DNA from: Takakia lepidozioides
Taxonomy: Eukaryota > Plantae > Bryophyta
Assembly (NCBI GenBank): GCA_030704615.1
Contig: CM060734.1
Location: 31,930,001 to 31,994,000, forward strand
Direction of reading: 5' to 3'
Length of the DNA stretch: 64,000 bases
Shown here: positions 11,310-64,000 of the stretch, in pieces
Layout: the number at the start of each line of letters is the position of its first letter
Position numbering within the stretch: position 1 is the stretch's first letter
Program-made: the position numbers and the translations under genes
The notes under the pieces: model-generated
Database searches by the model: none
The model's input: only the letters and a program-made list of their open reading frames with translations
Told to the model about the DNA's origin: nothing

Positions 11310-11744
11310 GTACTGCTTAAGTGGTACCGCCGGGGCGGGTCTTTGGCCCCTATTTTGAGACGGTTGATACTTGATACCCATGAAAACCGTGATCCCTTCC
11401 CAACACTGGTATTTCTTCTTTCCCTATAATTAAGGGGCCTGATTTGTGTGAGTGGTCGCTTGTTTTTTTTTTTTTTAAATTTTTTTAGAAGGGGAAGGAA
11501 CCCTTGAGAGTTTGATTTAAGATTAAAAATATTAAAACCCTTACATGCCTAGTGAGGCCTAGACACACATAGAACCGTGATGGAGACACCAAAGTTCAGT
11601 AACGTTGCTTTGGGTGTTTAATTAAACCATAAAGATATATTCTATTTTTTCTCTCATTTTATAAAATATAGTATTATTTTCCACTGTTATTTTGGTATAT
11701 ATATTGTCGTCTGGTATGTACACATGTAGCATTGGTGTTATGAC

Positions 11745-12679: not shown

Positions 12680-12930
12680 GTTATGACCCTCTCCGTCTAA
12701 TACCAGTTGATAGGAATACCTGGGTTATGAACAGGTTGTCCCTAATAAACCCAAAAGTAGTACCTTGGTTCTTATTAGAAGAGACTGATGTTCATTTTTT
12801 TCTTGCCTCCTATGTACATAGTACATACTAGTACTCCCCCAGTCCCTAGTGGAGTTTGATGTTACGCATCATAGGTGTGGCGCTTCTTTAATGTTGAGTA
12901 TAGTGGCGTAATTTCTTTAGGGGTAATTTC

Positions 12931-14819: not shown

Positions 14820-14985
14820 TATACACATATATATGTATGTGTGTCTCCTCCCGAAAAAGCGTAAATTATGGTGTCTCTTGACCCCCAGGACCAGTACCTC
14901 CCGATGGGAAGGTGGACACCTTTGCAACACCAATAGGTGCATTGAACCCACAACCACTTTCGAGGTGGTTTGTGCCCGTTATATA
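14820..14985 (-). mobile_element. Diverged copy of the same SINE-like family
   Basis: ATTGAACCCACAACCACTTTCGAGGTGG matches the hAT-internal module. GTGTCTCTTGACCCC matches 47140-47157 (reverse complement). Confidence 0.55.
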
Positions 14986-16859: not shown

Positions 16860-17360
16860 AGGGTGGAGGGGTTACCGACATTTTTGATCACATATTGGAT
16901 CATCATTTTCTTCCGGAAGTGAGAGTGATTTGCAATCCCCTGACCGAGGGGGGTAGCCGACATTTTCGATCCAATCTCCTCCGGAAGTGAGAATGATTTG
17001 TGATCCCCTGACTTGCGATCCCCTTACTGAGGGAGGGGTCGGCCGACATTTTCAATCACATTCTGGATCACAATTCTCCTCCAGAAGTGAGAATGATTTG
17101 CGATCCGGTTACTGAGGGAGGAGTCGGCCGACATTTTTCGATCACGTTCTGGATCACAATTCTCCTCCGGAAGTGAGAATGATTTGCGATACCCTTACTG
17201 GGGGAGGGGTCGGCCGACATTTTCGATCACGTTCTGGATCACAATTCTCCTCCGGAAGTGAGAATGATTTGCGATACCCTTACTGGGGGAGGGGTCGGCC
17301 GACATTTTCGATCATGTTCTCGATCACGATTCTCCTCCTCCAGAAGTGAGAGTGATTTGT
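16860..17360. repeat. Minisatellite, about 85-bp unit, 5-6 copies
   Basis: CC(G/A)GAAGTGAGA(A/G)TGATTTG recurs at about 16913, 16981, 17081, 17167, 17252 and 17340. Confidence 0.9.
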
Positions 17361-18641
17361 GGCGGTATAATATTAACCCACATTGCGGAGCATCTTTGTT
17401 TTGAGGTTTTCTTTGTCATTCCTTGGTTGTTGACCCATCCATCCATCCATCCATCCATCCATTCACTCCAAGAAGTGGAGCGGAACCGACAGTGTCGACG
17501 TCAGCAGGGGAAATATCGAGCATGGCGAGGCCTGCATCTTACGTGGCGGGATTTGAGTGGGCTACATCCGGGGGGGAGACAAGCGTATGGATAGAAATTG
17601 GGTGCCACGTGGTAACGGGCAAGGTTTGGCGGCAGGCGCTGCCAGCGGGGACAGCTGGCGTGCGGGCGCCGACGTCCAGCTTCTTCTTCTCGCGTCTGTC
17701 GCGTCTCTCGTTGGCAAGTGAGGGTTTTTTACAAGCAGGTAGGTACCTGCCTATTTTCTGTGACCGCCTGCCTGGCTGCTTCCTCTCTGAGCGCCTTCAT
17801 TACTGTTGTCTGCGGCCCCCAAGCTCGCCGTCGCTTTATGTGCTTATTTATGTAGGTTTTGCGGTGTCCATGTCTGCGTATGTAGGGTGTCAAGTGCTGC
17901 TTCTCATGGTTCTATCCTCGTCGCCTCGTTTATCTCTGTCTCCTCCTTCGTCGCGGCTGTCTGATCGCGACTCACGGTACTCACTACTTGCACTGTAATG
18001 AAACGACTGATTTGCGAATTTATGTTTTTTTCCCATATTTGAGGTCATTGTGCTGCTTAATCAAGCAGCCACGGCTTGGAGCCAGCCTTAGCACACTGCT
18101 ATTTTGTGCCAAGTAAAATTGGCTTTGAGGTACCAGCGAACTGAAAGTCTGTAGGGCAGTTGTGATATTGCGAAGTGTGGTTTGGGGGAGTCGGGTGAGG
18201 GCTAGACATACATACACCGTCCTTCCGAATCACTGGATAAGATAGAGTCTGCGCCGGGAAGTTTTTCAAGAAGGTTAGTTTACTGTTAAGAATCCGCGTG
18301 GGGAGGTTATTCCGTTTGTATTGACGGCATGAACACGAGGATTGGAGCGTCGATGTAGTGCACATTCACGCTGTGCTCGTCTCTCTATTTTCTTCAGGCT
18401 GCATGTAGCATAAGTTGTGCGGGTTGATGGTTCCCTTTGGCAATTGGAGGAGTTTACCGCCCTCGTCGAGGACCAATTCCCACCTGCTTCACGATAAAAA
18501 CTGCTACAGTGCAGCAGCAGAGGGGAGAGATTGATACATACATATATATATATATACTTATGTGCACGCACGACCAAGGGTTAAAGCGATTGGAGGACGG
18601 GAAAGGGGTGGCTCAGAAGTTGGAAGTTGTTCACAAGGAAG

Positions 18642-30435: not shown

Positions 30436-33400
30436 TCAACCAGCAAAGGGTGACACAAGCCCCAGGGCCTGTGCCCCTTGACGGAGCCCCCTCACAGCTG
30501 CCTTACCTGCTGCAATGTGAGGTTCGTCATCTTCTACCTCAATCACCTGAACATGAGATTTGACTCCCTGGTGATCAGCAGCAGCATTTGCAGCCAGTAA
30601 CCCAGTGACATAGGCCTTTTCTTGTGAAAGCCCACAGGCTCCATGGGTGCCAGGTCCCTGTTGTACCCAGTCGCCTGCCATGAACACATTTGTGAAGCTA
30701 GTTACTGTGGAAGGCATGTGCTGGTGAGAGCCAGGCCCAAATAGAGAAACTGCACCCTTGAATCGCAAAACACTAGAGTCAACTACTTGGGCTTCTCCAA
30801 ATTGTGAATCGCATCTTGTCAAGTACTTTTGCATGACCTGCGGGGGTAGAGTGCACATGCATTAACAAATTTACGAGTCAAACGTTTGTATTGTTAATAT
30901 ATTTACAGTGCTGAATCGAACATGACAAGCGATGCAATGCAAGTCCTCAGAAGAATGCAAACAATCCTATGACAGAACTTCACCAGCTCTGCAGAACTGC
31001 AGTTGCAATATCAGGCTCAATTTCTTGCTCAAGTTTCGGTAGGGATTATTGCAGTGGACAAAGCCTCCAGGATATGGTGGTGGCAGGATGGTCAGTAGCT
31101 CTATCCCTATCCTCACAGTCTCTTGTTAACCCAACAGCATGTCCCAACCAGACTCACTAAAAAACCAGCCTAAAAAGCCCCAGGGTATACTTCATATACA
31201 AATACCTGGACAATAGATTCTCTTTCTACCTCATCAATAATAGCCTCATCTGTGAGCGGGAGAAGCTGATTGGCGTGGAAAAAGTCGACCTCCATCACAC
31301 TTCCAGGCTCATCTGCAAACTCAGTCTACACCAGAAACTTCTTAACTCAACTTGGGAGAAGAATACAAACCATGACAGCCAGACCTAGTGTTAATCACAG
31401 TTCTTCCATGACCATTTGAGGGTGGGCCCTTCGGGATTGCAACAGGGGCAATTTTCCCCACTAGCCACACTAATTTCCCAAGTACAGAATTACAAGTACA
31501 GCTACCCAATTTGTCACAAAAAGATCCCGAGTCTCAATGACGTGTCCATTTCTATGACAGGCTAATGTGGTCCTTGGTTTAAGGCTTTCAAATGACTGAA
31601 GAGTTGCCAGTTCGTCACTCTTTTCAACTCATTCAGGTTCCTTGAGAGTAGTTTCATCTCGCATTTAATTATTTCAGGGTCTAGAAATCAGATTGCTGCA
31701 TTTCTTGTGGTCAGGGCAATACCTGCAAGGAATTGAGGTCAAAGAGGGTTGCACCAGTGCTTGGCTCAAATCCTGCAAGCACATTCGACGGATTTCGGAG
31801 GACAATATGGCGGTCTAGCCATAGACGTGTTGCCAGCACATCAATTGTCCCCAGGTTTGAAATGGCTGCAAACTCGGGCCTCTCTGCCAAAGCAGGTGAA
31901 GAAGCCACAATTTTCTGTAACAATACAAAGTTTGTGTCATTGTACCTGTGTTGTTTAAATAGAGAGAAAAGTACAGGTGGTAAAAATGGGACACATCCCT
32001 GACCCCACCAAGTATCTTACTCAATCTTGAAGCCTGAGAACTTCCTTGCAAGTTAGCTGAATCGCTTGTGAGGGTTGTGCACTTAGTGGAGAGCTAGGAA
32101 AGCATATAGATACTGACTCGGCTTTCCATAGCCATGAGGCTGGACACACAGACATGTGAGGGTTTGCGATTGAGCCTTTGCAGCCACAGGCTGGGAGATG
32201 TTGAACCACTGGTAGGTTGACAATCAGAAGATGGAAGTGCCAAAGATCTCTCAAGAAGGAGAATCCAAATTGTAACATTAAGCTTGACTAGAGCTGCTCA
32301 GAGACAATACTATTTGGAACAGAATACAGATGAGAACAAAGAAAATGGACAGAAATTTTAACAGGTTGATGGGCCCAGAGGGCACATGAGACAAAGTCAA
32401 ACCACAATGTTACATATCAGAAGACTGCAAATGTCGCTCGGAGAGGAGTGTTGTATGTGTTGGAAAACCACTGGCGTGTGGTCGGGCTAGGGATTGAACC
32501 TAGGACCTCCCCCATTCTGGTGGGGTGCTCTACCATTGAGCTACCCGTCCCTTTCTGTTCTCAGAGTGCCGTGCAAGGGCTATAGCCTTGACACCTCCAA
32601 CACTCCCCCTCAAGGCATAGCCCTTATAGCTGAGGCCTACCCATTCTGACCACCGCCCCAACCTTGGCTCCGATACCATGTTGAAAAACCACTGGCGTGT
32701 GGTCGGGCTAGGGATTGAACCTAGGACCTCCCCCATTCCGGTGGGGTGCTCTACCACTGAGCTACCCGTCCCGATCTGTTCTCAAAGTGCCGTGCAAGGG
32801 CTATAACCTTGACACTTCAACACTCCCCCTCAAGGCATAGCCCTTATAGCTAATGCCCACCCATTCTGACCACCGCCCCAACCTTGGCTCTGATACCATG
32901 TTGGAAAACCGTTGGCATGTACAGGACGATCAACGCCCAGACAAGAACAATCCGGTCGGGCTAGGGATTGAACCTAGGACCTCCCCCATTCTGGTGGGGT
33001 GCTCTACCACTGAGCTACCCGTCCCATTCTGTTCTCAGAGTGCTGTGCAAGGGCTATAGCCTTGACACCTCCAACACTCCCCCTTCCGGTGGGGTGCTCT
33101 ACCATTGAGCTACCCGTCCCTTTCTGTTCTCAGAGTGCCGTGCAAGGGCTATAGCCTTGACACCTCCAACACTCCCCCTCAAGGCATAGCCCTTATAGCT
33201 GATGCCTACCCATTCTGACCACCGCCCCAACCTTGGCTCTGATACCATGTTGGAAAACCACTGGCGTGTGGTCGGGCTAGGGATTGAACCTAGGACCTCC
33301 CCCATTCCGGTGGGGTGCTCTACCATTGAGCTACCCGTCCCTTTCTGTTCTCAGAGTGCCGTGCAAGGGCTCTAGCCTTGACACCTCCAGCAGTATGCAG

Positions 33401-44800: not shown

Positions 44801-47049
44801 ACCGCGCAGTTGGGCAGTGCGCAGAGTGCAGCAGTTGTACACACGGCAGACGGTGCAGCAGCAGTGTGGGCAGGCTGATGAGAACAGTTAGTAGGTATGG
44901 AGTATCATGCCCTTTGTTGACACCAGCTTTATTTTTTTTAATGTCTGTTCAAAGTTCAAATCAACACTTATGAGCCCATGCTTGGCGTCAGACACCCACC
45001 TACTGAAAAGACGCCGACAGTTGAAGGAGGTGGGTGCTTGTCACTCGTTAACACCTAGGTAACTTAGAAAATTTGGCATCTATCTGTCTGTGGCCTCCTC
45101 ATGCATCTTGGACACAATACCAACCCAAATGGAGTCTCTCTCACATATCCCGGTGGGTGGGACAGCTCTTGTCCCTGGCTTGATGAGGGACGGTGTTTCA
45201 ATCACTCTCATCACAGCAACCATACCCACCTGCTTCTCAGTGACAAGAATAGGTAGCCACAACAGAGAGACATGGTCATGATAAGTATGATAGGCAGTGA
45301 TGATATGCACACACTTCGTGACTAGCAGTCTTTTAGTTTACTTTTTGTTGCAGAGCACTGTGCTGCCAAGGTGTGCTTGGATGCTCAGTTATCGGTCTGA
45401 GTGGAAGTCAGAGAAGGCTGCTGGGAATCATAACTTACATTTGGACACGCATATTCCCAGATCTTTGTCCAATACGTATACTACAGCATTACAAGTATAG
45501 TAGGATACATGGAGGATATGGTTGGATTATCCTTCAGTCACTATTTAGAGGTAGCTTCTAACTTCAGTGAGTTCCAGGAATATGGCCGTAATTTTCAGTG
45601 GCATTTTTTTTTTCCAGAATTTTTAATAAATTTGAAATGTTAAAAGAAAAAAAAATCTTGCTGGAAAACTCTAAAACCATCATAGTCTGAAGTTGGAATT
45701 AGTCGGTGCGCAAACAAAAGAAAAAAAATGAAAAAAACAATCGGTGGATGTTTTCACACCACACAGTACGGATGGTGGACAGACAAAACTTAAACAATGC
45801 CGTTTCGCAAACTCTCATTGGAAATTGTTTTCAAACAGATGAGTTCACAGAAATTATAGTTGGGGTTCGTGGGCTCTTCAATCTCCACTTTGATCTGTCT
45901 ATACTTACCACCACTACACTATATTTTGACAACCAAGTTGTATCCTAGCCCATAACCGATTTTTAGAGCAGACTTGATGACGTGGCGTGTTTCTACTGGA
46001 TTTGAGGAGGGGTGCTGTATGTGGTATTCTACGACCTGCTAGATTTTAACTACCTACCTTCTTGCTGAGGGGATGGAAACTTCATAGCATAGCTCCAAAT
46101 GGATAGAAAACGTGGTGGTAGGTACGTACAAGGGTAAACTGTCTGGCTTGCTGCCCTAAAATGATTGGCTCGCTGCCCTAAAAACCGGTTATGTCCACTC
46201 CAGAGGAGCCCCTGCTACTGGATATAGCAGGTCACCCTGACATCTTGCCGCTTAGCACGGCTCGGTAGGTCATGGCTCCTTGCTAACTTATATCCGGTGG
46301 CGGGGGCTCCTCTCCAATGCTACCTAGTCCCTAAACGACGAGCCGACCCCAATGGGGTCGACCCAATTTTTCATCCATCCGTGGCATGCAGGGATGAAGT
46401 CCGATGAACGAGTGGTTTGAACAAAGGATGTAGTGCCGTCGCCGGATTCAGGCGAAATTCCAGCCACCGATTGCCTGACTTGGAGGAGGCCGGAAATTTC
46501 ACAAAACCAAATGAAATTTAGGGAATGTTTGGGAAATTCTTGGGCAGGCTTGTGTAGTTCTTGGCCTATGAGGAACTGACCGTTGGAATTCCCAATTGAA
46601 GGAGAATTTCGGGTCCCAATGGGGCCTATACCATTTCCTTTGGAAATTCTCTTTTTGGACCCCCATTCCAATCACATACAAAGCACCCCCCCTCCTTCAT
46701 TTTGGCATTGGGGTGAAATTTGGTGTGAGGGTTTGAGATTGTGCACTTCATAGGAATATAGTACTTTTTCTCCCAGGAAAATTTGGGATCATGGATAATT
46801 TGCTTGGTCAAACATGAACTTTTGCTTTGTTTTTTCCATTTTCCAAAAAATGCACCATCTTCAAATGTTATAATCTCCCAAACTACATGGTGGAATCTCC
46901 CCAAATTTGGGGGGCTTGTGCATCTGGTAGGTAGGAAGCAGTTTGTACGGTTCATCCACGTGGACGAACGTTAGTGGGTAGGTAGCCGCTGACATGTGAG
47001 GGTGGGTCCCGGAATTTTCCAAAAACCCAAAAACACCTCTTATCCTTTA

Positions 47050-47201
47050 GGTAATGGGCACATACCACCTCGGAAGTGGTTGTGGGTCCAATGTGTCACA
47101 AAGGTGTCCACCTTCCCACCGGAAGGCTATAGTAGTCCTTTGGGGTCAAGAGACACTCTAATTTACCTTTCCTTATGGAGGTGTCATATATTATATTATT
47201 A
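47050..47201 (+). mobile_element. Copy of the SINE-like family
   Basis: GGTAATGGGCACATACCACCTCGGAAGTGGTTGTGGGT matches 13257-13295. Ends in GGAGGTGTCATATATTATATTATT, like the hAT-internal copy. Confidence 0.55.
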
Positions 47202-48620: not shown

Positions 48621-50214
48621 ACCTGGCACTTAGACACCAATGCAAATGAGAGAGAGAAAAGAACTCTTGGTTGTTTGTTGTCATGCTTACTAGTAGACTT
48701 CAACATACTTGCAACAAATATTTTATTTTATTCATAAGATAAAAGGGGGACAATATTCTACAGTTTTGAACTAGGTCTCTCTTATGTTGTTCATAGTGCA
48801 ACTAATGCAATCAATGTCTCTTTCCAAGAGATACGTCCACTAAATCCAAGAAATTGTGGAGATGCCGTTTTTTTTATAGTATACTAAATGGAAGACTTGT
48901 TTAGTGTTCATGGTTTATGTAAGTTTAATTGGATTGATGACCATGGATGGGACCCTCTCATAAAGACTCTTCTTTTCTTGAAGCAATTAAAAATAATTTA
49001 GGGTGTCATTTAGCCGTGCATTACGTTGGAAGATGGATACATCCAGTGAATTTACAAAGCCTACTACTCAATACCCATGGTAACACCAGTCAACCCCGGT
49101 TGCAGGCCGACGTGATGTCACGTCGGCGTCAGCGACACTGACGGGATTTGGGTCACACGTCACGTCAGTAGGTAAAGACATGGGTAAAACATTGCAACGT
49201 CCTTAGACAGCATGGCACAATTGCCGGCGAGCCCAAGGAGGTGGCAAGTGTGACGCCAAAGTGGCGGTCACCTCGGAGCCAGTGAGCTGGCGTCAGTCGC
49301 CCTGGAGCCGGATGAGGTGGCGAGGCAAGCGCCCGCCTTAGTGGCGGTCGCCACTCTGCCGGACATGGTGGCGATCTCGGCGACCACCACCATGCAATCG
49401 CCTTCGAGACGCCTGAGGTGGCCATGCAAAACACCACCATAGTGGCGGCAGGGCATCCTCAAGCGCCGGTCGCCTCCGGTGAGGTGGTGGTCAGGTGGCA
49501 GAAGGGTGCCCGGAGGGGCCGGCGGGACAACCGCCACGTGCAGGTCGTAGGCGGGAGAAGAGGGCGACCGCCACGTGCCGTCGCCGGGAGGGAGAACAGG
49601 GTGACCGCCACGTGCGGTCGCTTGACGGGCCGCGGCTGCAATACGAGCACGGGCAAGGTGGGTGGCTGGGCAACCGCCACGCGCAGTCGCCGGCGGGACA
49701 CCACGTGGCGCCGCGTGCGGGATGGGCGACCGCTGTGTGGCGGGATGCGGGTGGGGGGTTGGGTTTGGGGGTATGGGCGGGGCGGAGGGTGGAGGGGATA
49801 TAAAAGGGCAGGCCTCCCCCCATTTTTTCACCTTTGCCTCCCCATTCTGGAGCTTGAGGGGTACTTTGGATGCTTCGCGTTCTGAGTCCGAGAGCTCGAA
49901 TTGGAAGAGCCAATGGTGCTTGGCATTTGAGGGCGGGGTTTTCAAATTTTTTTCCCTTGAACTAACGAGAGAATTGGTTTAGGCAAGGGTGCTTGGCATT
50001 TGAGGGGGGAGATTTTTGAGTTTTTTATCCTTGAACTGACGAGAGAATTGGTTTGGAGTCACGTCCGGCATGTGACCAAAAGGGTGCACAAACCGATTTG
50101 CTATGTCAGGAGGGGGAAGGGTTTAGGCCGGTTGAGGGGGGGTGTCGGGAGTGACAATCTATTTTTGTGCAGTTTGTTCCAAGATCTAATTTCATTTTCT
50201 TGCCATAACATACC

Positions 50215-50749
50215 TGTCGTGCGCATACGTATCGCTACACAACTACATCGCTGTCCAAACCACACCACACATATATGCACAATAAAGTAGTCTGCCACAA
50301 TAAGAAAAGCTAAAAGGCTACAAAGGACACACACTCCAACACAAGAAATATGAAATCCATCGCTATCACTCTTTAAAACAGAAGTCGAGCCAGGGGCACC
50401 CCAAGCTGTGGGGACTCCACCCCACAACAACCTACACTCCCATCATGAGCACACTCAGTCCTAAACGCATGAAGGAGCTCGGTCGCGCAGGCTCAACTCG
50501 AGAGAGATGAGCTGCGCGACTGCCGCTCTCATGAAGATAAGACGGTTCAGGTGTCAAACTAAACTTGACACCTGACTTAACACTTGACCTAAATCCAAGT
50601 GTTAAATACAAATAACTAGCTTTATTCTAGTTGTTTTCACACTGTGCTTATTTAACTTGACAGCTGTCGTGCGCATACGTATCGCTACACAACTACATCG
50701 CTGTCCAATCCACACCACACATATATGCACAATAAAGTAGTCTGCCACA
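50215..50749 (-). repeat. 3' terminal repeat block B1-GC-A2-B2 of the Gypsy element
   Basis: 85-bp B copies at 50665-50749 and 50215-50299 (one mismatch seen) flank the A copy at 50300-50662. Confidence 0.93.
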
Positions 50750-51016
50750 ATCGCCCCCCTAGCTGGTGGATAGGTCCCTCTACCTCCAGATAGCTACAAG
50801 ATGTAATAGCCACAGCCATACTAAGTCCTTTATCACTGTCCCTATTGCACTCAAACTCTATAGACCAAGAGGCCGGGTACAAGAGTAGCCCCATCGTTAG
50901 TCGCGTCTTGCAATTTGTGAACTTGAGCCAGGACCTCGTGTGTTCAAGGTCTCCTAGTAGCTGGGCCTTGCGTTTCTTGTTAGCCTTCCATGGTTGTATC
51001 CACTCCCACTATCCAA

Positions 51017-51155
51017 TGCAATGTGGACATAACCAATCCCCATCCGAACCATCTCAAGAGGTGGAGTCAAGCATCCCATATGCCAACCTCTAGAGCATCG
51101 ATCACACACCAGCATGGTGGCTGCCCCTCTAGCAGACCCACACAACATGCCCTCA
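51017..51155 (-). pseudogene. PHD finger at the integrase C-terminus (frameshifted)
   Basis: (C)MLCGSARGAATMLVCDRCSRGWHMGCLTPPLEMV/DGDWLCPHC gives C4HC3 spacing; the first Cys is inferred across a frameshift. Confidence 0.85.
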
Positions 51156-51299
51156 AACCTGCAGATACCACTGCCAAGTTTGGGTCTAATCTTGCCATCG
51201 ACATTCGGAGGTGACATGGCGCACAATTACGCACATGGTCCTTCCAAGTTATGCCATCCCGACCCTCCAAGACCAAGACGCCTGAGGGCAAGACCTCTC

Positions 51300-52290
51300 G
51301 AACCCTCAAAATAACACGTCATGCAGTCACATCCAAGGTCGTAGGAGCAGTCTGCTGCAGGTAAACATAGTCACCAGGGTTGAATCTCCGAACCCCAGGA
51401 CGATAGCCCCCACCACGTATGGTAGCATACCTCAACGTATCACGGTGTTGTGCGATGGCAAGGTTTTCGAAGCCATGGGCATGACTTTCTTGAACAACTC
51501 TGCACGCTACTCACATGCACGTGCCCACACGTCCGGATCGTCAAGGTTAAGAACTGCAGCAGCTTCTCTGCGAATGGATGCAGGCAAATCCGGCTCTCGA
51601 CCAAAGAGAAGAAAGTATGGTGAGAAGGAGGCAAGTGATGCTTGCTTGCTGAACGTGTAGCCCATGGCTAACCAGGGTAACAGAAGGTCTCAATCTCCTA
51701 GGTGTCCCTTCTGCAAGCCATACTTGCGCAAACCTCTCTTTACTGTCTGAATAACTCTCTCTGTCAAGCCATCGGCCTCATGATGATCCCGAGAAGTGGT
51801 GCGGTGGTCTATCAAGGCCTTGTCACACAAAGCCTGAAACTCCCCCAAGAACTCTCTCCCTTGGTCCGTGAGTACCTCAGCTGGAGCACCGAATCGGCTA
51901 AGCACACAATCCAAGAATGCATACGTAGCTCCCTCACTAGCCTTATCAGGCAATGGAACCAACTCAATCCACTTGGAAAAGTGCTCCACCACCACCAACA
52001 CGTACTTGTTGTGACGCATGGTCAGTGGCAATGGCCCTGCGAAGTCAAGACTCCACCTGTAGCCCAATCCCATGATCGGAAGAGGGTGCAATTGTGGAGT
52101 AGGGGCGTTGAATGAAGCACGCACCATGTCACACACCATGCACCTAGCCACAAATTGTTGCACCTCTGTGTGCATACCACGCCACCAATACTGTCCCTAC
52201 AGTAAACTATGAGTGCGTCGCACCCCAAAATGCCCCAACTCCTCATGGGCATGCCGCACTAACCGTGCCCGCTGTGTTGGGTGAGGCACA
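51300..52290 (-). pseudogene. Retroelement integrase (zinc-binding plus DDE core), frameshifted
   Basis: HEELGHFG, FVARCMVC, WSLDFAGPLP, VEHFSKWIE, VLTDQGREF, DGLTERV. Confidence 0.9.
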
Positions 52291-52639
52291 ATCCTCACTC
52301 GACCATCCTCCCACACTCGAAGCAGGTGTGTCCCCTCCCACTTGAACCTCTGGCTCGTTGTAGGATCCGATCCCTCTCCTTGGCAGTCACAGTGGCTGCA
52401 GTGTCTCCAGTGCGGAGGTAGTCCAACACAACTGAATCCTCATGTATATCTTTGGCGCCACCTTGCTCATTGCTGGCCTCAGGGTCCTCAGACACTTGAT
52501 CTACAGTCATCCCTGTTGCAGGTCCAACCTGGCCTTCCGCTGCCAAGATACACAGAAATGCAGATGCATGCCATCCGGGCACCATCTCCTCGTCCGTCTC
52601 ACCATGCCACCGAACTCCAGTGTCATCCTGCTGGCTCGT

Positions 52640-54060
52640 GCATGGATTGCGACTCAACCCATCTGCATTGCGATTGACCAAACCCGGTCGATGCACCACC
52701 TGAAGTCATACTCTTGAAGGATGAGTGCCCCACCGTGCAAGCTTCCCCGTAAGCTTGTCTGACTCCATCAACCACTTAAGTGGTTGGTGATCCGTGACAA
52801 GGGTGAAGAGATTGCCGTATAGATAACACCTGAAGTGTGCCACGGCCCACACTGCAGCTAAGCATTCTCCCTCAAGAGCTATACTTAGACTCAGCAGCAT
52901 TGTTTGAGCGGCTAGCATAAGCCACTACGAACTCTCTTCCCTCATCATCCACTTGTGTGAGCACCGCTCCAAGCCCCAGCATGCTCCAATCGTATGCAGC
53001 TGAAAAGGACGCCCCTAATAGGTCGTCTCAAGATGGGCGCCGAGGTCAACCTCGCCTTGAGCTCTTGAAAAGCTTGTTCTTGCTCATCTTCCCACTGCCA
53101 CTCCTGGTCCACCTTGGTCAGTTTGGTTAGAGCCTTTGCAATGGCACTAAATCCCTTAACAAACCGTTTGTAATAGTTTGCTAACCCATGAAAGCTCGAA
53201 CTCGGCTCACATCCGTGGGGGCGTGGAACCTGTGCATGGACTCTACCTTAGTCTGTTGTATCCCCAATCCTCCAGGATATATCATGTGACCCAGATACTC
53301 AATCTGGTTGTGGAAAAACTTGCACTTTCCCGGATGTAATTTCAATCCGTGCATCCTCAAGCGCTCAAATACCCCCTGAAGGTGTCTCTCATGCTCCTCC
53401 ACCGTAGCACTAAAGATGATGATGTCATCTATGTAGCACCGAGCAAACTCCACCCGTGCTAGAATCCTATCCATGACCCTTTGAAACTCAGCAGGAGCGT
53501 TTTGAAGCCCAAATGGTAAGAACCGCCACTGGTATAGGCAATCCTTCCCGTGCTCATTGATCCCCCAGAATGCCGTCTTTGCTTATCCGCCTCCTTGATC
53601 GGCAATTGGTGATATCCGGATCGTAAATCCAACGTGCAAAGACCTTGGAATGCCCAATGGCATCAAAGATCTCTCTGGTGTCGGCATGGCATACCTATCG
53701 GACTTGGTCTGATGATTTACAGGCCGGTAATCACCGCACATACGTCTCTCCGTCCAATTGCCATAGACATCCTTTCTTGGCTGGCATCACTGTGGCTGAA
53801 GCATACTCTCCACCAGAGAGCTCCACCAAACCTGCTCCCAGAGATCCTGAGTTCTCATCTGAATCAAGGACCTTTCCATGTCACTGTATCTATAGGGTCT
53901 CCGAAAGATTGGCGTGTCAGTGGCCAATTCAATGCAAATCTCTTGACCCTTCAGTGCTCCCAAGTCCTTCAAACTGAAGGCAAAGCAATTCCTGTAAGCC
54001 CTCAGGAACCGCCGCATACGTCGTCTCTCTCCTCCGGTGACAATGGGTCCAATGTTAGGC
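52640..54060 (-). pseudogene. Reverse transcriptase plus RNase H, frameshifted
   Basis: PIFRRPYRYS, LDLRSGYHQ, YIDDIIIFS, KCKF, YLGH; RH motifs DWSMLGLGAVL, EGECLAAVWAV, TDHQPL. Confidence 0.92.
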
Positions 54061-54439
54061 TCCCAATTGTCCTCCGTAACTGCAACCTTAAGTCCAGTGG
54101 GCTTAGAGGTAGAGGACGCGTCCCGTGGTTGCTATGCTGCAACCTCTTGAGCAGTACTCCCTTCCTGCTCAGTCAATAACAAGGCCTCATCCTGCCCCCA
54201 TCATCTCATCATTGAGAACCTCCTCAACCCGAGAAGAATCCCCAACCTCATCCAATCCGCTGCCTTGGCTGCCAACTCCTCTGGACCTCGAGCACCTCCC
54301 ACGTGTGCCATGGATGTCTACATCCCGTGGTCCTCACCGGCTTGCCCCTACTCGCTGCCTGTACCGTCTCGGTAGGCAGAGAGACCGTCAAGGGAAGTGC
54401 ACTCCGCACTCTACGTTGGCTCAGCCATAGCCAAGCTGA

Positions 54440-55385
54440 TAATCCAGGTCAGCAATTGAGATCCATTGCTTGCCCCAACACCTGACGACGTGATGCTCAG
54501 AAAAGAGAAGGCACCGCCGTGGTCCCAGTGGAAAAACCCCATAGCCCGCTCTCGCTCGTCGGCATTAGGCTCCACTAACTGCGCAACTGAGCATCCCACA
54601 GGAGGCCAGGGCCACCATCTGAAAAGCATGGGAAGCTGAGCTATGTAGGTAATGCTGCTCGTGGTTGACCCATCCTGTTGACCACTGCCAAAGGCGAACG
54701 GTCATCGTGTCTCACACGTTGAGACTGCCTCCCTGTGTCCAAAATGCCATCCATGGTGAGGTGTGCTGGCCGTTGCACCCATCAAATGCACGCTTGAGTA
54801 GTGCGGGTGACATCAAGTTAGTCCACCAAAGCCGTGGACGATGAGCCCGTGACCCCACTGGCAGCTGCATCCAGCAAAACACTGCTGTCCCAAGCCACGA
54901 CCGGACTTGAGGCACAGTGGCCATCACCTGGCCCGAGAATCACCCATCAGTGACACATTCTCCAAGATGTATGCTGGGAGAGACAGCTTGATGAAGCTGC
55001 AAATGGCGCAAAATCCGCACCATCTCCCAAAACAGACTCGACCTCGAGTCTCGCAATCCATTGCCATGCTTGGCTGATGAATGCTCTTGGCAGGGCCAAC
55101 CTGCCACGACCAGATCAATGGAGCCAACCTGCTCAAATCCTGCGCCCAGCAGCAAGGAAATGTCTGTTGGCAAGGCTTGTTGGTATCCACGAACTGCAGA
55201 CACCGGCAACAACAACTCAGGTACTGCTGTACCAACTGAGCAACATGGCGCAGTGAGATGCGTCGTGCAGTCTCATCCCTCTCCACATACAGGTAACGCC
55301 TTACCCGCACACCTGCCTGTAGCACAGTAGCCAATCCGGTGCTGATCCCGCCAAACAAGTCCAGAAGGCAAATGCCTTCATCCGG
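54440..55385 (-). pseudogene. Cytosine-C5 DNA methyltransferase domain inside pol, frameshifted
   Basis: Motif I LDLFGGISTG, II YVE, IV AGWPCQ, VI YILENV, VIII HRPRLWWTN, IX ERERAMGF, X LGQAMD, all in canonical order. Confidence 0.9.
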
Positions 55386-55779
55386 ATACTGCCACACAAT
55401 AGGTGTGGTATCCAATGGTGACAACTGAGGTGGTCCTGGTGCAATACCCGCACTCTCCTCCTCTCCTGACGGTACAAAAGCCTCTACCCAGGCTTGTTGC
55501 ACCCGTCGATCAGCAAACCCTGCAAATCCTTGCTCGTACCCCACAATGGAGTGTGAACAACCATGGCAGGCAACTCCGCCATACCATGCATGTCATCCTG
55601 CTCTGCTGGAGGTGGCACATCCTCTGCATGGGCATTGCCTTCCAGCAACTCTCAGGCCAACTAATTGCAGCTGTAAAGGCGGCTAGTGTTGGCATCTTGC
55701 CCCGTTGGCAGCTGCAATACCCCCAATGAATGTCACAGGGAGCTGTGCACGACGACCATCCCCTAACTGCCATCCAGGC

Positions 55780-58340
55780 CTGTAGAATGCTGACTCCTCA
55801 AAGTCAAAAGCCCAGGGGGGTGAAGCCCCAATGGGGTCCAATAACCTGCCCCACCAACGAGGACATCGTAAAGAGACCGTTCTGTCACAATGGCCTTGGC
55901 TCGCATTACTGAGCCATCGATAGGATGATCCGGCTGCAGTCTAATGGCCAACTGATGCCGTGTCATGCCCGAGCCTACTCTGATCCTCCCAGAGATGTCT
56001 GTATCTGGAAAGGACAAGGCTCCATATCCGCCTCCATGAGGCCCAAACCTGCAATAGCAGCTCTGCCCAACATCAGTGGCTGAGCTCCCGAGTCCAACAA
56101 GACCCGCAGTGGTCGGTACTTCTTGTCTGCCGGTCCACTCAAAGAGAAAATGCCATCCTGGTTGTCTAACAAGACAACTCAAGTGTCACCATGGCGCGCT
56201 CAAAGGCTGGCCTAGCTGGCAGCTCCGTCAAACTGGCAGCTGCAGCTTGCCATGGCGTAGCCGTGGCAGTCTTGACCCTCAAATCCGAGGATCCCTCTGC
56301 CACTACACCTTCCTAACTCCGCAGAAGATGAAGTGATATCCCCACTCTCACAGAGTGTTGCTGCTAGTCTGAATACTGCAGCTGGTCTTACCCCCGGCGT
56401 CGCAATCATGGTTGTCGAGAACAGAGGTGGCTGCCCCCAACAACACACCGGCTGCACTAGCCTTGGCAGCAGGTGTCAGTGCTGCACGTGTAGCTCTCCC
56501 AATGGCATAGAAACCTCCGCCTCGGTAACAGTCGGGCGAGAACTAGGTGCCATGGAAGGCGTTGACACTGTCTCTGCCAAGGTGAATGACTGAGGCAACC
56601 TTGCCTGACGGCTTGCCCCCCACGTTGTGGATCCAACTCCACCTCTGCACCTCGTGGCTCAGGAACTCGTGCTGCTCCTTGAGTCACGGCTGCAGCAGAC
56701 TCCACCTGCTCTAGTGGTAGTGCTGCTCCGCACATGAATCCCATGCCTCCCATATCTCCTCCCTCAGGAGCAGGAGGTGGACCATCCCGCCTGGGAGCCG
56801 GTACCGCCTGAGCTGTAGCCATGGCAGCGAGCCTCTGCTCTAGCTGCTGAAGCCGGTGGCCATGCCTTGGTCAACACCCTGACCTCCGCGTCTTGGCCAT
56901 GTTGACTTGCCCTTGGCCTGCACCTCGTGCCCGACCACCTCGTCCTCTCTGGGCTGTCCACCTCGCCTTTGGGCGCAACTCAGGATGCAAGTCATAACAC
57001 TGGGCATCATCTCCATGCCCATACTTGCCACAATGCCCACACTGCAATTGTGCAGGCTGTGTTTGTGCCGGCCTTTTGCCTCTCTCTGGGCAATCTCTCT
57101 TGACATGGGGTCCTCCACATGTACCAATATATCAACCCCTGGTTGCCTTGGCCTGCAAAAGATGCCACGGGCCTCTGCACCTGAGGTCCCCTGTAAGCTC
57201 CATGGAACTTGGGTTTGGAACCCTTGCTCCCCTGACCATGCTGTTTGGCAGTCCGTGTGGCCTGTGGGCTGGGCACTGCACCTCGTGCAGGCATGTCCTT
57301 GCCAAACCCAATGGTAACAACTCGCTCCCTCCACCATGTTGAGCTCAATCCCCGCTCAGCCAGCACAAACACATCTGCTAAGTTGGGTTGGGCTGCTTGT
57401 AACAGGGTTGCATCCCTCACCCTATCTGAGCTCCTTGTCCAAAATTCCATACCAGACTGGATTGCCTGAGCTTCAGTAACCATTGGGTCACACGTATCAA
57501 GCGCCTCATACGAGTGTCGGCCTCTCGCAAGTCTCTCACTTGGTTTGCGCTGGAAGTTTGCAACCGCAGCTTCTCGCGGACAACCCTCTGTCGTACCCCT
57601 TGGTAACTCCTCCGCAACTCCTGGAAGATTCCACCACCCCCGGGTTGAATCTAGGCACATGTGTTGTAGTCGTGGCAGGAGGAGTTAGTAGCACCTTTTG
57701 AACTGGTACCACCTGCAGAAGTAACCGTGCACCGGCACTACTTGTTCACTACTAGTGCTGGCAGTGGGAGATATTGGTACTGCTGCAGAGCCTACTGGTT
57801 GCGTCGTGCCTCGAGTAATGGAGACGTAGTCAGGTGACCAATCACATCCTCCACTCCTCAATCTCTGCTTCATGTCCTCCGCCTGAACTCGTGTAATCAT
57901 CCATAGGCGGGCCTTCAAATGTCTGTTAAAAGTCCCGTCCACGCCATGAATGGGGTGAATAGCTGTGTATTGCGCATCTGCTGCAAATCACCCAGCTGTC
58001 GAACTCCTGGATAAAGTCACCAACTCGATTGTGCCACAGCTCCAGAGTACCTACGAGGCCCCTTGGTAGCTCCATACATCTCCTCCATGTCGTCCACAAC
58101 AATGGCGAATGAAACTGCACATCTGTTGATGACGCCTCTGAGTCTGTTGTCTGACCTGCACTACTTGAGGGTGGAGGTGAAGGTGGTCTGAAACGACCAC
58201 CTCGTCTGGTGAACCCACTCTCACTACTACTGCCTGTAGCCGTACTCCCCCCCTCAAAACCCTTGGGTAACTCCGTGATGACACTAACAACGTGCACCTC
58301 CCCCACGTACACTATATAAGGCTCTAGTACTAATTCTAAT
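55780..58340 (-). pseudogene. gag-like region and aspartic protease of the Gypsy element, frameshifted
   Basis: Protease VLLDSGAQPLMLG (about 56060-56110). Gag-like DFIQEFDSW near 58000. Confidence 0.7.
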
Positions 58341-60329
58341 AGTGACACGGGGTGGGCACCTGTTGCAGTTTAAGGGTCATATCCCAGTGGCTCAGGGCAC
58401 CTGCACCTGCATAACCAACCCGCAAGAACTCCTATGGTTGGCTGGTCATCAACCCATTCTCACCACAGAAGAAACACTGGTGGTCTTGCTGGTCATCACT
58501 CCAGCCTCACCACCGACAACATACTCTAGGATTGACCGGTGATCAAATCCGGCCTAACCCCTATGAAAGCAAGCGCCCACACAAAACCAACATGGCGCAC
58601 AGTCAAGCATGGCAGGTGTTGGGGGGGATCCAAACACAAGAATCAAACATCAACACCCCCCACACCAAATCAAACTGCAATGCTGATCCTGCAATAATAG
58701 CCCAGTCCCAAAACCACCCCGACTGACTGGCCTCCACCAAGAGAGGCTTTGGCACTACAAGTACAAGGTAATGAAAATAAGTACAGAGATGGAGGGTAAG
58801 AATAGAAGCCCCAGAAGCCCGCCAAAGCAAGATCTAATCCTCTAATCCGATCTATGCTATCAAACTGCCAGCCTTCTCTCAAAGTGCCTCGCTCTGCATG
58901 ATGGTAAGGTGTAGGAGGTATATCTATGTCCAGAAAACCTGCCCACTAACCTTGTCCCAAGCGACAGTAGCTCGCTCTAACCAACCTTCCTCCTCTTTCT
59001 GCCAGGTAGAGACAAAGCAACACTCTGCTAGCCTCCTCCCCGCTCACTGAACACTAAAGAAAACAAAGGTAGGGTCTGATAGTCTCTCAACTTCGAAAGC
59101 TTTGAGACTGTTTCGGGTGTCCTCATTGCGAATGACCTGCATCTCCTTCAAACAGAACAAACTTGTCCTCGCTAATGAACCCCCGCTCGTGGTTGCCTTG
59201 TGCAGAGCGTTTCTGGCTGCAACGCTGTATGATTGCCAAACAAACTTGTGTAGCTTCCTGCTCCTCTACTTCCAATACCCCACGGCCTTGTGGCTGAACA
59301 CCTTGTCCCCGGGGCTGTTTTGGCTGTGTTCCAAGCCTAGCTTTCACACCCCTTTGGTATTTCACTTACAGCTGCAGAACTGCTGGCTCCAACAGAGTTC
59401 GGACTGTCCAAAGCAATATTGAGGCCCTCAACGCCAACTACAACATTTTGTTGTCTACTTGCTAGCCTGACTCCCAGTATGCAATCAACTCGTCCAACTG
59501 TTCTCCCTCAAATCAGTCTGAGTTTCCTTGGGAAACATAAATCTTGTCCCTTGGGTGCATAGGCTAAAAGAGACCTGCCCTTCATTACGTCCTCATTTCC
59601 CCCCAAGCCATACAAGGAGTACATCCCCAGATTTATCTCTCATGTAGAACCAAACGGTTTCTAGAAACAGGATTGGGATCTTTCATGGCACATTCACACT
59701 CTAAAAATTCCATAGATTTTTAGCAGAGTCCCAAAAACAAAAACCAGGTCTAGGTAGGTAGATATCCCTTTTTTGCAGCTATCTCCCCAAAAACTGGGTC
59801 AAACAGAGTCCATTTGACAAAGATATGACCATTTGATCAAAGGGTTTTTTTTTTTTTTTTTTTAAAGGTTTTCAAGTTTAAAAATTTAGAGTTACACCCA
59901 AAATATCTGGTAACTGGTTCCTGGTTCCCTAAGTTCTATATGGTTTCCTAGGTTCCCTGGCCACGTGTCTGCTGTTCCCCTCCATTTCATTTGAGTTCAA
60001 CAGCTCACCATGCTTTGGAATCCCAACCGTCTTCCACCACAGACCGTGGTGACGATGGAGGTCGTGGAGCGATTCTTCCCAGTGAACCCTCGAGAGACGA
60101 GTCCTCGAGAGACAAGTCCCCTGCGCACTTGATATACACTCTCTTAATAGAGATCAAAATCAGCAAGGAACAACCATTGACGACACCCAGAGATCAGAGA
60201 CAAGTACTTGCGCAGTTCGGAGGCCACAGCATCCCCTCTGGACACTGGGCGGGGAATAGCTGCTACACAGCAGCTCAGTCTATCCTCAGTTCCTATACCT
60301 ACTAGTTTCCTGCCCCTGCTCCTCCTTCT

Positions 60330-60869
60330 TCACAGCAAATGGCCTAAGATCTGGTGGGAGTTACGTGTATCAGCAGGTGCTGGAGATGCTCGAGATCTAG
60401 AATTGCTGTGAAATGGGCTTCCAGTGCTCGCCCTACGAGGGCTTGGATTGCCTCGTGTGGCTTTCGGAGAAGGGTCTGATAGACCACTCGATATTCTTGA
60501 TGTCTTGATGGCAGAGAGTGAGGAATTCTTCATAACAGCTTGATGCAAGGCACTGTAAGCTGCTGATTCGCTATCCAGTGATGGAAAGAGTGGTGTGGCT
60601 GGGGGTGTCAATAGCCAGTCATAGTCATTCTTGTCTATATCAGAATTGAGCAAGTCGCTCCCCACTCCTTTTCGCTTGATGGGGGGGGCTGCACCTTGGT
60701 ATCAGAGAGAGGCTTCGAGGTCCTGAGTGTTTGGATGCAAGAACTGAGTGTGCTCCCGAGTGCGCATATCCTTGAACAAGGCCAGGTCTTCGTCCTTCTC
60801 CTTCACCATGCTGCCGGTACTGCGCCCGCGGCGGTGCTGTCCAGCAACCGCCCACGTCCCTCTATCCAT
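60330..60869 (-). pseudogene. Captured intronless 5' fragment of a host basic proline-rich (BPP-like, microtubule-associated) gene
   Basis: MDRGTWAVAGQHRRGRSTGSMVKEKDEDLALFKDMRTRE...ASL*YQG...DLLNSDIDKNDYDWLLTPPATPLFPSLD. The hallmark family motifs are in one frame, with one internal stop. Confidence 0.8.
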
Positions 60870-62212
60870 TCTGATGTCCCTGTGTCAGGCGCTCTCCAGC
60901 ATCCTCCGGAAGCCCGTTACTTCGATGACGCCAATCCGCGCATATTGCTGCCTATCTGACTCCATAGAGCACCTGGAGGGAACATGTATCGACACCCATC
61001 CGAAGAAAACCAATGTAGCACCATCAGGACAGGAACCTGAACGCATCTTCACTTTCGAACTGCTTCCAGCGGTCTGCTGCGCCACAAACAAAAAGTGCTG
61101 CTGCAGTTGATGAAAAAAATTGAGCTGGTGGAAGAGGATGTTTGGGTGCAAGAGGTATTGCAACACTGTATAAGCTCAGCTGAGTAAAACCTATCCCTTG
61201 ACCTCCACACTTGGGCAGGCAGTAACCTTCTTCCTTGCCACTCTCACAAGCAGATTGTCAATGTCTGGCACAAGCATAGTACTCCTCCTGTCCGTCTCCA
61301 CCTATGCTATTCAAACCCTTACCTTCTACCGCCTGAAGCCGAACATTTCGTGCATAGCAACAGCACGCTTGCCATCCTTGCAAGCCCAGCTGCTACTTCT
61401 TACACTACTATTAATGCCCACACAAACTGCCATCGGAATATTGGCAGCATTGTGAGACAAGCAGGCCCGCTGCCACATTGCAGTTCCCAAGCTCCACCGC
61501 CACAGCAAGCCAAGGCGACAGACGAGGAATTGGGAAAGGAAATCCGGCACGTGTGAACAATGGCAGAGAGCTGCAGCCTGCTGCTGCTGCAGCTCGCGCA
61601 GACACGAGAGAGAGACTTTGGCTTCTTTGGATCAATTTGGCTTCTTTGGACTTTGGCTCCGAGTGTGTATTGATAGAGGGGGTCACTTGCCACCTACCAC
61701 AATCCCTCCAGAGGGCATGGTGTGTGTGCAGATCTGTATGCTGCCACTCGGCATATCCTCCGCAGGCGGACGACGCCCTTACAGTGGAAGCACACCTCAC
61801 CAATGCCATGCACCGCTTAGCTCCACACTCCTGCGCATTTTCTCCTTTTCTCCGGCAGGTGCAGCAGCAGCACCTCCACCAGAGGAAGCCACCACAACCA
61901 GGGATGACGCCACCCCAAACTGTTTGCACTTCGTGATCCAGCCACTCCCGACTGTTTTGGGTCCGAATCCAAAAGTTTACACGAGTCTCGTCTCCCTCCG
62001 TTCAAGTGAAAGAGAGTAGGGAAGCCAACTATCAAAGTCTTCAACCTCCACACCTCTTGGTTTTCAAACTCACGAGCAGAGACGACAACTAAATCTGCGC
62101 GCACAGCCCATGGAAACAGCAGGGCCAGATGGACTCCCGCCCCAAGATATATATTATAATAATGCTAAAACAAACATTGTATCTAGCTTAGCACCAGCAC
62201 ACTAGATAACGG

Positions 62213-62226
62213 TCATCTCTCTCGAG
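62213..62226 (-). promoter_or_regulatory. Putative self-priming primer-binding site
   Basis: CTCGAGAGAGATGA, directly after the 5' repeat's terminal CA, is complementary to 62431-62418 within the repeat. Confidence 0.7.
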
Positions 62227-62583
62227 TGATAAGAAAAGCTAAAAGGACACACACTCCCAACACAAGAAATATGAAATCCATCGCTATCACTCTTTAAAAC
62301 AGAAGTCGAGCCAGGGGCACCCCAAGCTGTGGGGACTCCACCCCACAACAACCTACACTCCCATCATGAGCACACTCAGTCCTAAACGCATGAAGGAGCT
62401 CGGTCGCGCAGGCTCAACTCGAGAGAGATGAGCTGCGCGACTGCCGCTCTCATGAAGATAAGACGGTTCAGGTGTCAAACTAAACTTGACACCTGACTTA
62501 ACACTTGACCTAAATCCAAGTGTTAAATACAAATAACTAGCTTTATTCTAGTTGTTTTCACACTGTGCTTATTTAACTTGACA
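62227..62583 (-). repeat. 5' terminal repeat A1 (357 bp, TG...CA)
   Basis: Near-identical to 50300-50662 (a 9-bp and small homopolymer indels). Confidence 0.93.
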
Positions 62584-62592
62584 TACCAAGCA

Positions 62593-64000
62593 ATGTCTGG
62601 AACAAGGTCTAGCACTGGGACAGGAAGTTCATCAGGGAAAAAGAAGAAACATGGATCGGAGCGTGATAGCGCTATCAACAGAGACTATTACCCCAGCAAA
62701 GCCGCCGGGGATGTTGTCAAGGAGTTGGTGCTAGCATATTTTATGGAGAAGAGCATGATGTACTTCCAAAGTGCGTATGTCCGGCATGGACACGATGGAT
62801 TTTGCAAGTTTGAACTGCGGATGGAGCAAAAAATCCGGGAAGCTTTGGCCGGGGAGAAGTGGACAGAGGAGAGGGAGAAGCGCAAGTTCGACCAGTGGGT
62901 GGAACATCGAGTGGGCGACATCACATGGAATCTCAAACAGCTTATTGGTTTGATGGTGAAACAAACGACAGCGGTCTGCTGCCGGCTTGGGAGAAGGACT
63001 CGTTTGTGTGAGTTGGCTGGTGGGCGGATTCAGCGAAGGCCCACGGAAAACGCCGCACCAAGTCACTGACACGGAGGCAGCCCGACAGCATTCCTGGAGA
63101 GGGAGCGGCATTGTTGTACCTCAGTTCAAATGCAGTGGTGGAGCAGTTGGATGCACCACGGGAGGGGGGCTTCGGACGAGATCGTAAGGCACGAATTGCG
63201 GGTGATATCCGAATTAATATTAATTGGCAATTGGTGGGGAAAACACCTAAGGAGAAAGATCATCATCTTGCTAGGAGGCAACATTTTGAAGAGGCCATGG
63301 CTATGCGATTCGCACATCATGGGATTATAAAATATATATGTGTTCATCCACGAGACTTGGAGTGTTACACATTGTGGTGGAATGGGGGTTCCCTACTTGA
63401 TGTTTGGAAGAGTGACGAACGATTTGGGAGCCGGGTGGATAACAGGAGCTCACTATTGGCAAAGCATTGGATCGAGCAAGAACAGGAGCAGGTGAACCGT
63501 TTGGTTCGTTACCGCCGCCACCAGAGTAAATTAGCTTGGGCACTATTGAGCATTATGGATAGTGTTCATAAGAACCACGTCATGCACAATGACCTTTCAC
63601 CGAGTAATATTTTGTTGCATTTCCCGGATAGTACCGACCAGGTGTACATCGGGGCGTGTGATTGGGAAATGGCAACCTCCATCGAGGCAGGACACATTTT
63701 CACGAATTTTTTACACATCCCCATAGTTCACAATTTGTCCTCCGGAATAGCATCACATCCATCGGCCGCTTGAATTTTTGGCCTATCGTAAACGTCCCAA
63801 TTGAGGTCCTGTTTCTTCCATTTGGCACCTCTCTATCCTGCGGGGCCTGGTTCGACCGCCTCCCCGAAGATATTTCCATATCTTTTTGAAACTACCAACA
63901 AAATGAAGGAGGAATTGCATCGGTGTTGGTGGGTGGCGCCAGAGATTGCTATGGTCCACGCGGCAACAAACAATTTGGTGGATGACACACCGCGAAGGCC
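62593..64000 (+). pseudogene. Degenerate atypical protein-kinase-like gene (probably transposon-borne), runs off window
   Basis: EGGFG loop, HNDLSPSNILL catalytic loop, CDWEMA (DFG-equivalent), WWVAPE near 63935. Several frameshifts. Confidence 0.7.

Follow-up and report, generated by a model that had tools for sequence, protein, structure and literature searches.

The 64,000-nucleotide stretch of Takakia lepidozioides DNA analysed here (the window) carries a defective Ty3/Gypsy retrotransposon of a PHD/methyltransferase group, with split repeats in the arrangement A-internal-B-A-B. This element likely primes reverse transcription with the 5' end of its own RNA and likely integrates by way of an integrase cut at an internal palindrome, made after the ends of the cDNA have been joined. 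A self-priming signature in a Gypsy lineage outside Tf1/sushi is well supported, and the split ends of the element point to an unusual route of integration.

A Gypsy element with split repeats

The element lies on the minus strand, as do all of its features described below, and extends from 62583 to 50215. It is flanked by a 4-bp target-site duplication, GGTA, present on the left (62584..62587) and again after the right end (50211..50214). The left end is a 357-nt repeat, A1 (62227..62583), which starts with TGTC, ends with TTATCA and probably corresponds to the 3' part of U3 plus R-U5. On the right, a polypurine tract (PPT; AGGGGGGCGA, 50751..50760) directly precedes an 86-nt repeat, B1 (50665..50750), which is followed by the dinucleotide GC, a 362-nt second copy of A (A2, 50301..50662) and a second copy of B (B2, 50215..50300) that forms the right terminus. 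Both copies of B end in GACA, and at the B1/A2 junction this generates a 10-bp palindrome, GACA-GC-TGTC (50659..50668). The termini of the element are this same palindrome cut open: TGTC at the left and GACA at the right, with GC absent, between the two copies of GGTA. The alternative of B as a giant target duplication was rejected, since B lies directly behind the PPT and is also found in relatives.

Two complete LTRs in direct repeat are absent from the element. The 5' repeat of a preliminary description of this DNA is present, but it is only part A of a split repeat, part B having been overlooked. For 327 nt there is no difference between A1 and A2; a 1-nt and a 9-nt indel then follow within the last 30 nt. 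At the join to B2, A2 falls short of A1's last 2–3 nt. Tandem hairpins occupy the 5' part of repeat A (62468..62540), as seen when the 3' copy was folded as DNA (50430–50770, z = –6.0).

Coding content and classification

The Gypsy order of reverse transcriptase (RT), RNase H and integrase is present, in pieces. A broken Gag zinc knuckle and protease region (55978..57131) was located by tblastn with the intact ORF of a relative, L006. Next come a C5 cytosine methyltransferase domain, frameshifted but with its GWPCQ motif kept (54455..55445; PF00145, E = 7e-10), a broken RT and RNase H (52706..54092; PF00078, E = 3e-24; PF17917, E = 7e-16), a broken DDE integrase comprising the H2C2, core and C-terminal modules (51214..52355; PF00665, E = 2e-14) and a C-terminal PHD finger (51005..51143; PF00628, E = 6e-7). 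No tyrosine recombinase family was found in the 17 window ORFs or 18 related proteins scanned. The longest ORF in the coding part is at most 225 aa, compared to 1369 and 1047 aa in L006, and the window copy is therefore defective, whether through decay, non-autonomous spread or assembly error.

Between the methyltransferase and RT, an in-frame TAG is followed by CAA (54132..54134). An in-frame stop followed by CAA or CAG is found at the same place, between Gag-protease-methyltransferase and RT-RNase H-integrase-PHD, in L002 (2686), L005 (9464) and L006 (5083), and L006 is open throughout except for this stop. In this context the stop is a candidate for read-through. The 3.7-kb leader holds a captured piece of a conserved host plant gene (60390..60839), in one frame with in-frame stops and no intron gap, whose best matches are Sphagnum proteins (57–62% identity). 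Further stretches of the leader resemble captured mRNA.

The element had been described as Tf1-like. This stands as a working likeness, but we reject membership of Tf1/sushi: the element has no chromodomain, carries a C-terminal PHD finger together with the C5 methyltransferase, and appears to belong to another RT group. Among 18 related proteins, 16 have a PHD finger and none a chromodomain, while a chromodomain was found in 5 of the 26 C-terminal tails of other loci. In a quick RT tree (97 rows, 192 columns; 3 of 81 loci, whose RT matches were short, were left out), the family forms one 34-row branch (SH-aLRT 95). All five chromodomain loci lie in a separate 19-row branch (SH-aLRT 95), in a tree that includes no named Tf1 or Tcn1.

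The DNMT-Gypsy protein P0070 of Klebsormidium nitens (PF00145) groups with the window RT (SH-aLRT 95), although on a long branch (0.98). It is 58% identical to the window element in integrase and 36–44% in the methyltransferase domain, which occupies the same slot in both, before RT. P0070 is probably KnitGypsy-Dnmt3 (de Mendoza et al. 2018), an element of K. nitens to which the Fig. 4c legend of PMC5890265 assigns DIRS-like repeats and a C5 methyltransferase in Pol. The window element fits the KnitGypsy-Dnmt3 type in its RT-RNase H-integrase order, C5 methyltransferase in Pol, split (DIRS-like) repeats and RT grouping; KnitGypsy-Dnmt3 is algal, whereas the window element resides in a land plant. 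Among the 120 integrase relatives listed of 193 are sequences from Calypogeia, Riccia, Sphagnum, Marchantia, Klebsormidium and volvocine algae, the nearest named integrases among these listed matches being from Calypogeia (85–87%) and Riccia (83%). With the Sphagnum-like piece in the leader, these matches fit a bryophyte host. In the algal-type P0072 and L031 (11303–12073), a methyltransferase-like domain sits between RNase H and integrase rather than before RT. No methyltransferase domain is detectable in three family members, L010, L011 and L007 (3272–3875), the last of which is an internally shortened copy.

A primer site complementary to the repeat

It had been claimed that nucleotides 62227–62213 (ACTCGAGAGAGATGA) are exactly complementary to 62431–62417 within the repeat (TCATCTCTCTCGAGT), and this is correct at all 15 positions on the minus strand. 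Because the first of these bases, the A at 62227, closes the repeat, the primer-binding site proper is 14 nt long (62213..62226) and directly follows the repeat; the self-primer segment spans 62417..62431. A reading of the sequence after the repeat also bears out the reported lack of a TGG-type tRNA site. At up to two mismatches, the 64 kb contain three occurrences of the 14-mer: one in each repeat copy (that in A2 at 50510–50497) and one at the primer site, against a chance expectation of 0.26. A 15-bp duplex anchored within 6 nt of the repeat end was seen in 0 of 300 dinucleotide shuffles of the repeat, for which the mean was 5.3 bp with Watson–Crick pairs and 8.2 bp when G-U was allowed. 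No Rfam match was obtained over 49500–64000 at E 0.5, and the primer is absent from the four ARAGORN hits in the window (32478–33340).

Conservation and covariation of the duplex

Scanning JGI metagenomes by RT yielded 502 relatives; of the 80 loci that were kept, 16 belong to the family of the window element, by similarity of RT, integrase, PHD finger or methyltransferase. Ten of the 16, being short or decayed, lack a usable repeat A and primer site (L002, L003, L008, L009, L010, L011, L013, L014, L021 and L033). We compared six relatives with a 5' region (L004, L005, L006, L007, L012 and L031), reading L006 as a collapsed assembly. Because repeat ends in these relatives were set by eye, the shuffle tests on them are not blind. 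Searches elsewhere returned one unrelated locus (IMG/VR, by RT), and the family's Pol occurs in none of 87 motif loci (78 IMG/VR motif hits and 9 GTDB PPT-motif hits).

The duplex exceeds chance in some relatives and not in others. Starting from the last base of repeat A, L006 has a duplex of 16 bp (0 of 300 shuffles) and L005 one of 10 bp Watson–Crick or 17 bp with G-U (1 of 300), both above chance. L007 is marginal, its A1 copy forming 8 bp (4 of 300 shuffles; 79 of 300 with G-U). Two relatives are at chance: L004, with 7 bp (77 of 300), and L012, in which the primer has been lost by deletion (170 of 300). For the algal L031, a strict search gave no primer duplex, and a lenient search gave three matches, including a 10-bp candidate duplex in the expected register.

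Covariation was counted from fixed anchors over 12 homologous positions in these divergent 5' regions. Each primer pairs with its own site at 11–12 of the 12 positions (Watson–Crick), compared to 4–9 of 12 for swapped pairs. Between lineages (window, L005, L006 and L007) there are 5–8 two-sided changes per 12 positions, the compensatory changes among related families that the preliminary description had proposed to look for; the close relatives L005 and L007, about 85% alike, differ by two. From one lineage to another the primer sites have only 4–7 of 12 letters in common, but every site fits the repeat of its own element, and the register of the duplex stays the same. The sample is small, at three independent lineages. 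Two-sided changes can also arise by copying, should the primer serve as template for a new copy of the site, a process which itself presumes self-priming.

Predicted RNA start and fold

Transcription had been proposed to start near 62431. The CA at 62430–62429 is the more likely start, judging from the position of the TATA box in relatives: in L004, L005 and L006, TATAA lies 29 nt before the opening CA of the primer (distances counted by eye from printed sequence). A canonical TATA is absent from the window element, which has a weak TATA-like hexamer, TATCTT (62455..62460), 31 nt before the A at 62429.

The loop of about 190 nt suggested earlier is right in length, the 3' end of the primer being 190 nt from the end of the repeat, but it is predicted to contain two stems rather than to be open. 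These stems take 3–5 bp from the 15-bp duplex, and the working primer duplex is likely to be 9–13 bp. A helix beside the primer (5' arm AGTTGAGCC, 62411..62419; 3' arm GGCTCGACT, 62304..62312) is kept in all five copies examined (window, L004, L005, L006 and L007). In addition, the 5' arm of a predicted U5 stem (62284..62292) pairs with 62232–62224, beside and into the primer site. Folding of the RNA from 62431 predicts a three-way junction in which the primer duplex has 11 bp (z = –4.9, 0 of 200 shuffles). Folds from the predicted starts gave z = –4.3 for the window (62429) and –3.1 for L006, with the first 9 nt paired to the site region at a probability of 0.79–1.0. The L005 fold is not unusual (z = –0.8), and the decayed copies L004 and L007 do not fold into the primer duplex. 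The predicted folds contain the central duplex and the U5 stem; the leader/LTR duplex of Tf1 is not predicted.

Covariation across related families, TATA box spacing in relatives and the predicted fold thus all favour the tRNA-independent self-priming proposed earlier. On the evidence of sequence comparison, self-priming in this group appears well supported, because relatives keep the duplex in register with different letters and have a TATA box 29 nt before the primer.

A hairpin is possible between the primer and the sequence just upstream, as read from L004 (~199–221), L005 (~4282–4303) and L006 (~8828–8855). Such a hairpin, present only in the 3' copy in the RNA, could mask that copy.

Split junctions in relatives and in Chlamydomonas

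The order PPT-B-palindrome-A is found in the window, in L005, L006 and L007, and in the algal-type L031, the palindrome being degenerate in L006 and L007. An A-internal-B-A-B structure occurs in two copies, that of the window and L007; in the latter the A/B seam is exact but B2 is truncated. L012 has the form A-internal-B and a 4-bp duplication, and it is, with the window element, one of two copies with 4-bp target duplications. Of the defined left ends, all five begin with TGTC, and none is preceded by B. In L031, a second junction palindrome (14958–14970) lies 64 nt after the first, at the contig end.

Similar ends occur in Chlamydomonas reinhardtii. According to Craig et al. 2023 (PMC9940879), the internal part of Gypsy-7a, -3, -6, -8, -9 and other families ends in PPT-B-CA-GC before a TGT LTR, the left LTR of Gypsy-7a is short of the right LTR's last 8 bp, and the Pol of these families includes a PHD finger. 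B is shorter there than the 86 nt of the window element, at 6–8 nt in Gypsy-7/8/9/10 and about 50 nt in Gypsy-3/6. We read part of the repeat library in the supplement of that paper by eye. In this portion, 10 of 11 hits of the junction palindrome fall in Gypsy-section entries, most of them right behind a G-rich tract, and CAGC before a TGT LTR ends 17 of the 25 Gypsy internal parts displayed, with B ranging from 6 to about 50 nt. Gypsy-7, -8 and -9 have the same split ends and TGG-type sites at the start of the internal part, unlike the window element, whereas Gypsy-3 seems self-complementary, its LTR containing a 13-nt complement of the sequence that opens the internal part. Since split ends go with TGG in the former and with a self-complement in the latter, the two traits, split repeats and self-priming, are distinct. 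For the Gypsy-6 site, no 12-nt complement was found in the library portion, where line breaks or an ambiguity letter could hide a match.

Proposed replication and integration route

The positions of the primer site, PPT, palindrome, termini and duplications are observed, as is the covariation, and on this basis we propose the following cycle. Transcription would start at about 62429–62430, as the TATA spacing in relatives suggests. The first 9–13 nt would pair with the site behind repeat A, forming a three-way junction, and an RNase H cut would free an RNA 3' end; by analogy with Tf1, this step is very probable. In Tf1 (PMC7175516), the site pairs with the first 11 nt of the RNA, and RNase H cleaves the RNA between nucleotides 11 and 12. 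Plus-strand synthesis from the PPT would then produce a full repeat, B-GC-A, at both cDNA ends, given the observed positions of the PPT and primer site. The end of A would be joined to the start of B, either by an end-to-end jump of RT or by ligation. Finally, a 2-nt staggered cut by integrase would open the left GACA-GC-TGTC, and insertion of both CA ends, with duplication of 4 bp of the target, would leave A-internal-B-A-B. We rate these last two steps together, end joining and opening of the left palindrome by integrase, as slightly more probable than their opposite. Foamy virus integrase offers a precedent, as it is reported to cleave a palindromic LTR–LTR junction (PMC1180852).

A symmetric 2-LTR circle would contain two equal palindromes and would yield A-B-A-internal-B half the time. 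None of the 5 left ends has that arrangement, and this favours an intermediate that is nicked and end-jumped and is cut close to where the ends are joined. In L007 the A/B seam is exact; in the window element it is 2–3 nt short, with the termini unharmed, as expected if the seam is remade in each cycle. Two observations count on the other side. The 9-nt and 1-nt indels near the end of A2 are not predicted by copying of A1 and A2 from one template, and under this model they can be explained only by slippage or assembly error. In addition, A2-B2 is found in only two copies, one of which has a truncated B2.

Four other explanations were weighed. Self-priming may be real, with the primer supplied by the 3' copy (A2, towards the 3' end of the RNA) or by internal cleavage rather than by the capped 5' end. 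The primer sequence does occur in A2 (50510–50497), the A2 copy in L007 pairs better than the A1 copy (11 versus 8 bp), and the window element has no canonical TATA; but three relatives have TATAA 29 nt before the primer, the hairpin upstream of the primer in L004, L005 and L006 would block a primer that kept its upstream part, and complementarity stops at the predicted start in L006 and the window. We consider this unlikely, and to the same degree the idea that the layout is inherited as in PAT/Ngaro-type DIRS elements, with an RNA spanning A2 and B2, B2 copied from RNA, and a duplex that serves folding, dimerisation or packaging instead of priming. The repeat layout is indeed that of DIRS elements (PMC5890265), and differences between A2 and A1 near the 3' end would be expected were A2 inherited separately. 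Against this, the primer site and PPT are at the canonical places for an LTR cycle with a B-GC-A repeat, and the element has a DDE integrase, not a tyrosine recombinase, along with TG…CA ends and 4-bp duplications. Moreover, in Chlamydomonas relatives of the same layout (Gypsy-7, -8 and -9), TGG-type sites occupy the position of the self-complementary site, which argues that this position is the priming site.

That the site binds a tRNA fragment or other host RNA, its match to the repeat being incidental, is very improbable. Half-tRNA priming exists in plant Copia elements (PMC6317226). However, the low similarity of sites between lineages, each of which matches its own repeat (4–7 of 12 letters shared), speaks against a host RNA, as do the lack of TGG, the 0 of 300 shuffles and the lack of an Rfam match at E 0.5 in 49500–64000. 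Least probable of all, and close to negligible, is an A-B-A-B end produced by an assembly error or a one-off aberrant insertion. The many frame changes in the coding part, set against nearly identical repeats, could reflect an error-prone assembly, but PPT-B-palindrome-A is present in independent assemblies (L005, L006, L007 and L031), the same order is seen in many Chlamydomonas families and KnitGypsy-Dnmt3 has DIRS-like repeats (PMC5890265 and the library portion). We prefer priming by the RNA 5' end and integration through the joined ends.

Relation to known systems

The window element shares its A-coding-B-A-B layout with PAT/Ngaro/TOC1-type DIRS elements (layout as outlined in PMC5890265). 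Under the replication model for DIRS elements, such split repeats imply a joined-end intermediate. DIRS elements of this type use a tyrosine recombinase, unlike the window element with its DDE integrase, TG…CA ends, PPT and 4-bp duplications. The split layout as such is thus already in print, in KnitGypsy-Dnmt3, although the sections of PMC5890265 available to us give no primer site, junction palindrome, target duplication or mechanism for that element. A full-text search of the literature found no description of a self-priming or junction-cutting mechanism for this group.

In Tf1/Tf2 and in Tf1/sushi elements including plant Tcn1, a site directly after the CA end of the repeat is complementary to the predicted RNA 5' end, as in the window element (PMC7175516, bioRxiv 2022.12.06.519325 and PMC6317226). 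The duplex of about 11 bp and the predicted U5 stem beside the site are further likenesses. The window element differs from these elements in having a PHD finger and not a chromodomain, in its apparently separate RT group and in its split repeats. Where the three-duplex 'pretzel' of Tf1 has a duplex between leader and LTR, the predicted fold of the window element has a helix beside the primer instead. Among plant Gypsy elements, only the Tcn1 clade has been credited with self-priming, and a horizontal origin of that clade from fungi has been argued on this ground (PMC6317226). A second, PHD-bearing lineage that self-primes makes the trait weaker as a marker of Tf1/sushi ancestry.

Foamy virus integrase, like that proposed here, cuts a palindrome that holds both CA ends (PMC1180852). 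There the palindrome arises by joining of the linear DNA ends, whereas that of the window element is encoded ready-made inside the repeat. The joined A/B seam of the window element is at a different place from the palindrome and tolerates base loss.

The split layout may explain why such elements are missed by LTR-pair finders that need TG…CA on both repeats. If the end-joining and palindrome-cutting steps are true, a DDE integrase would routinely use the junction of a joined-end circle. Use of circle junctions by integrase has long been argued over for retroviruses. In this case the route would be directly testable, as Gypsy-7a is active: this family, with its 8-bp B, transposes in laboratory Chlamydomonas strains and accounts for 86 insertions in CC-4532 (PMC9940879). 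The evidence is evenly balanced on a broader proposal, namely that a green-lineage Gypsy clade, from volvocine algae to bryophytes, holds both integrase attachment sites in one ready-made LTR palindrome, with the joined-end circle as an obligatory precursor of integration. Part of this clade would have dropped tRNA priming independently of Tf1/sushi, and its cycle would then need neither a host primer nor precise cDNA ends.

Other features of the window

Several repeats lie outside the element. A large inverted repeat at 11740–13865, with 717-bp arms that are 96% complementary and further arms outside, has the form of a foldback-type element, and short pieces related to it are found at 14897–14986 and 47047–47194. 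The four ARAGORN tRNA-like calls at 32478–33340 were rejected, as they have no valid anticodon and fall within an array of five 131-nt repeats (32478–33400). Degenerate tandem arrays are present at 4887–5921 (57–76 nt units) and 16875–17393 (units of about 85 nt).
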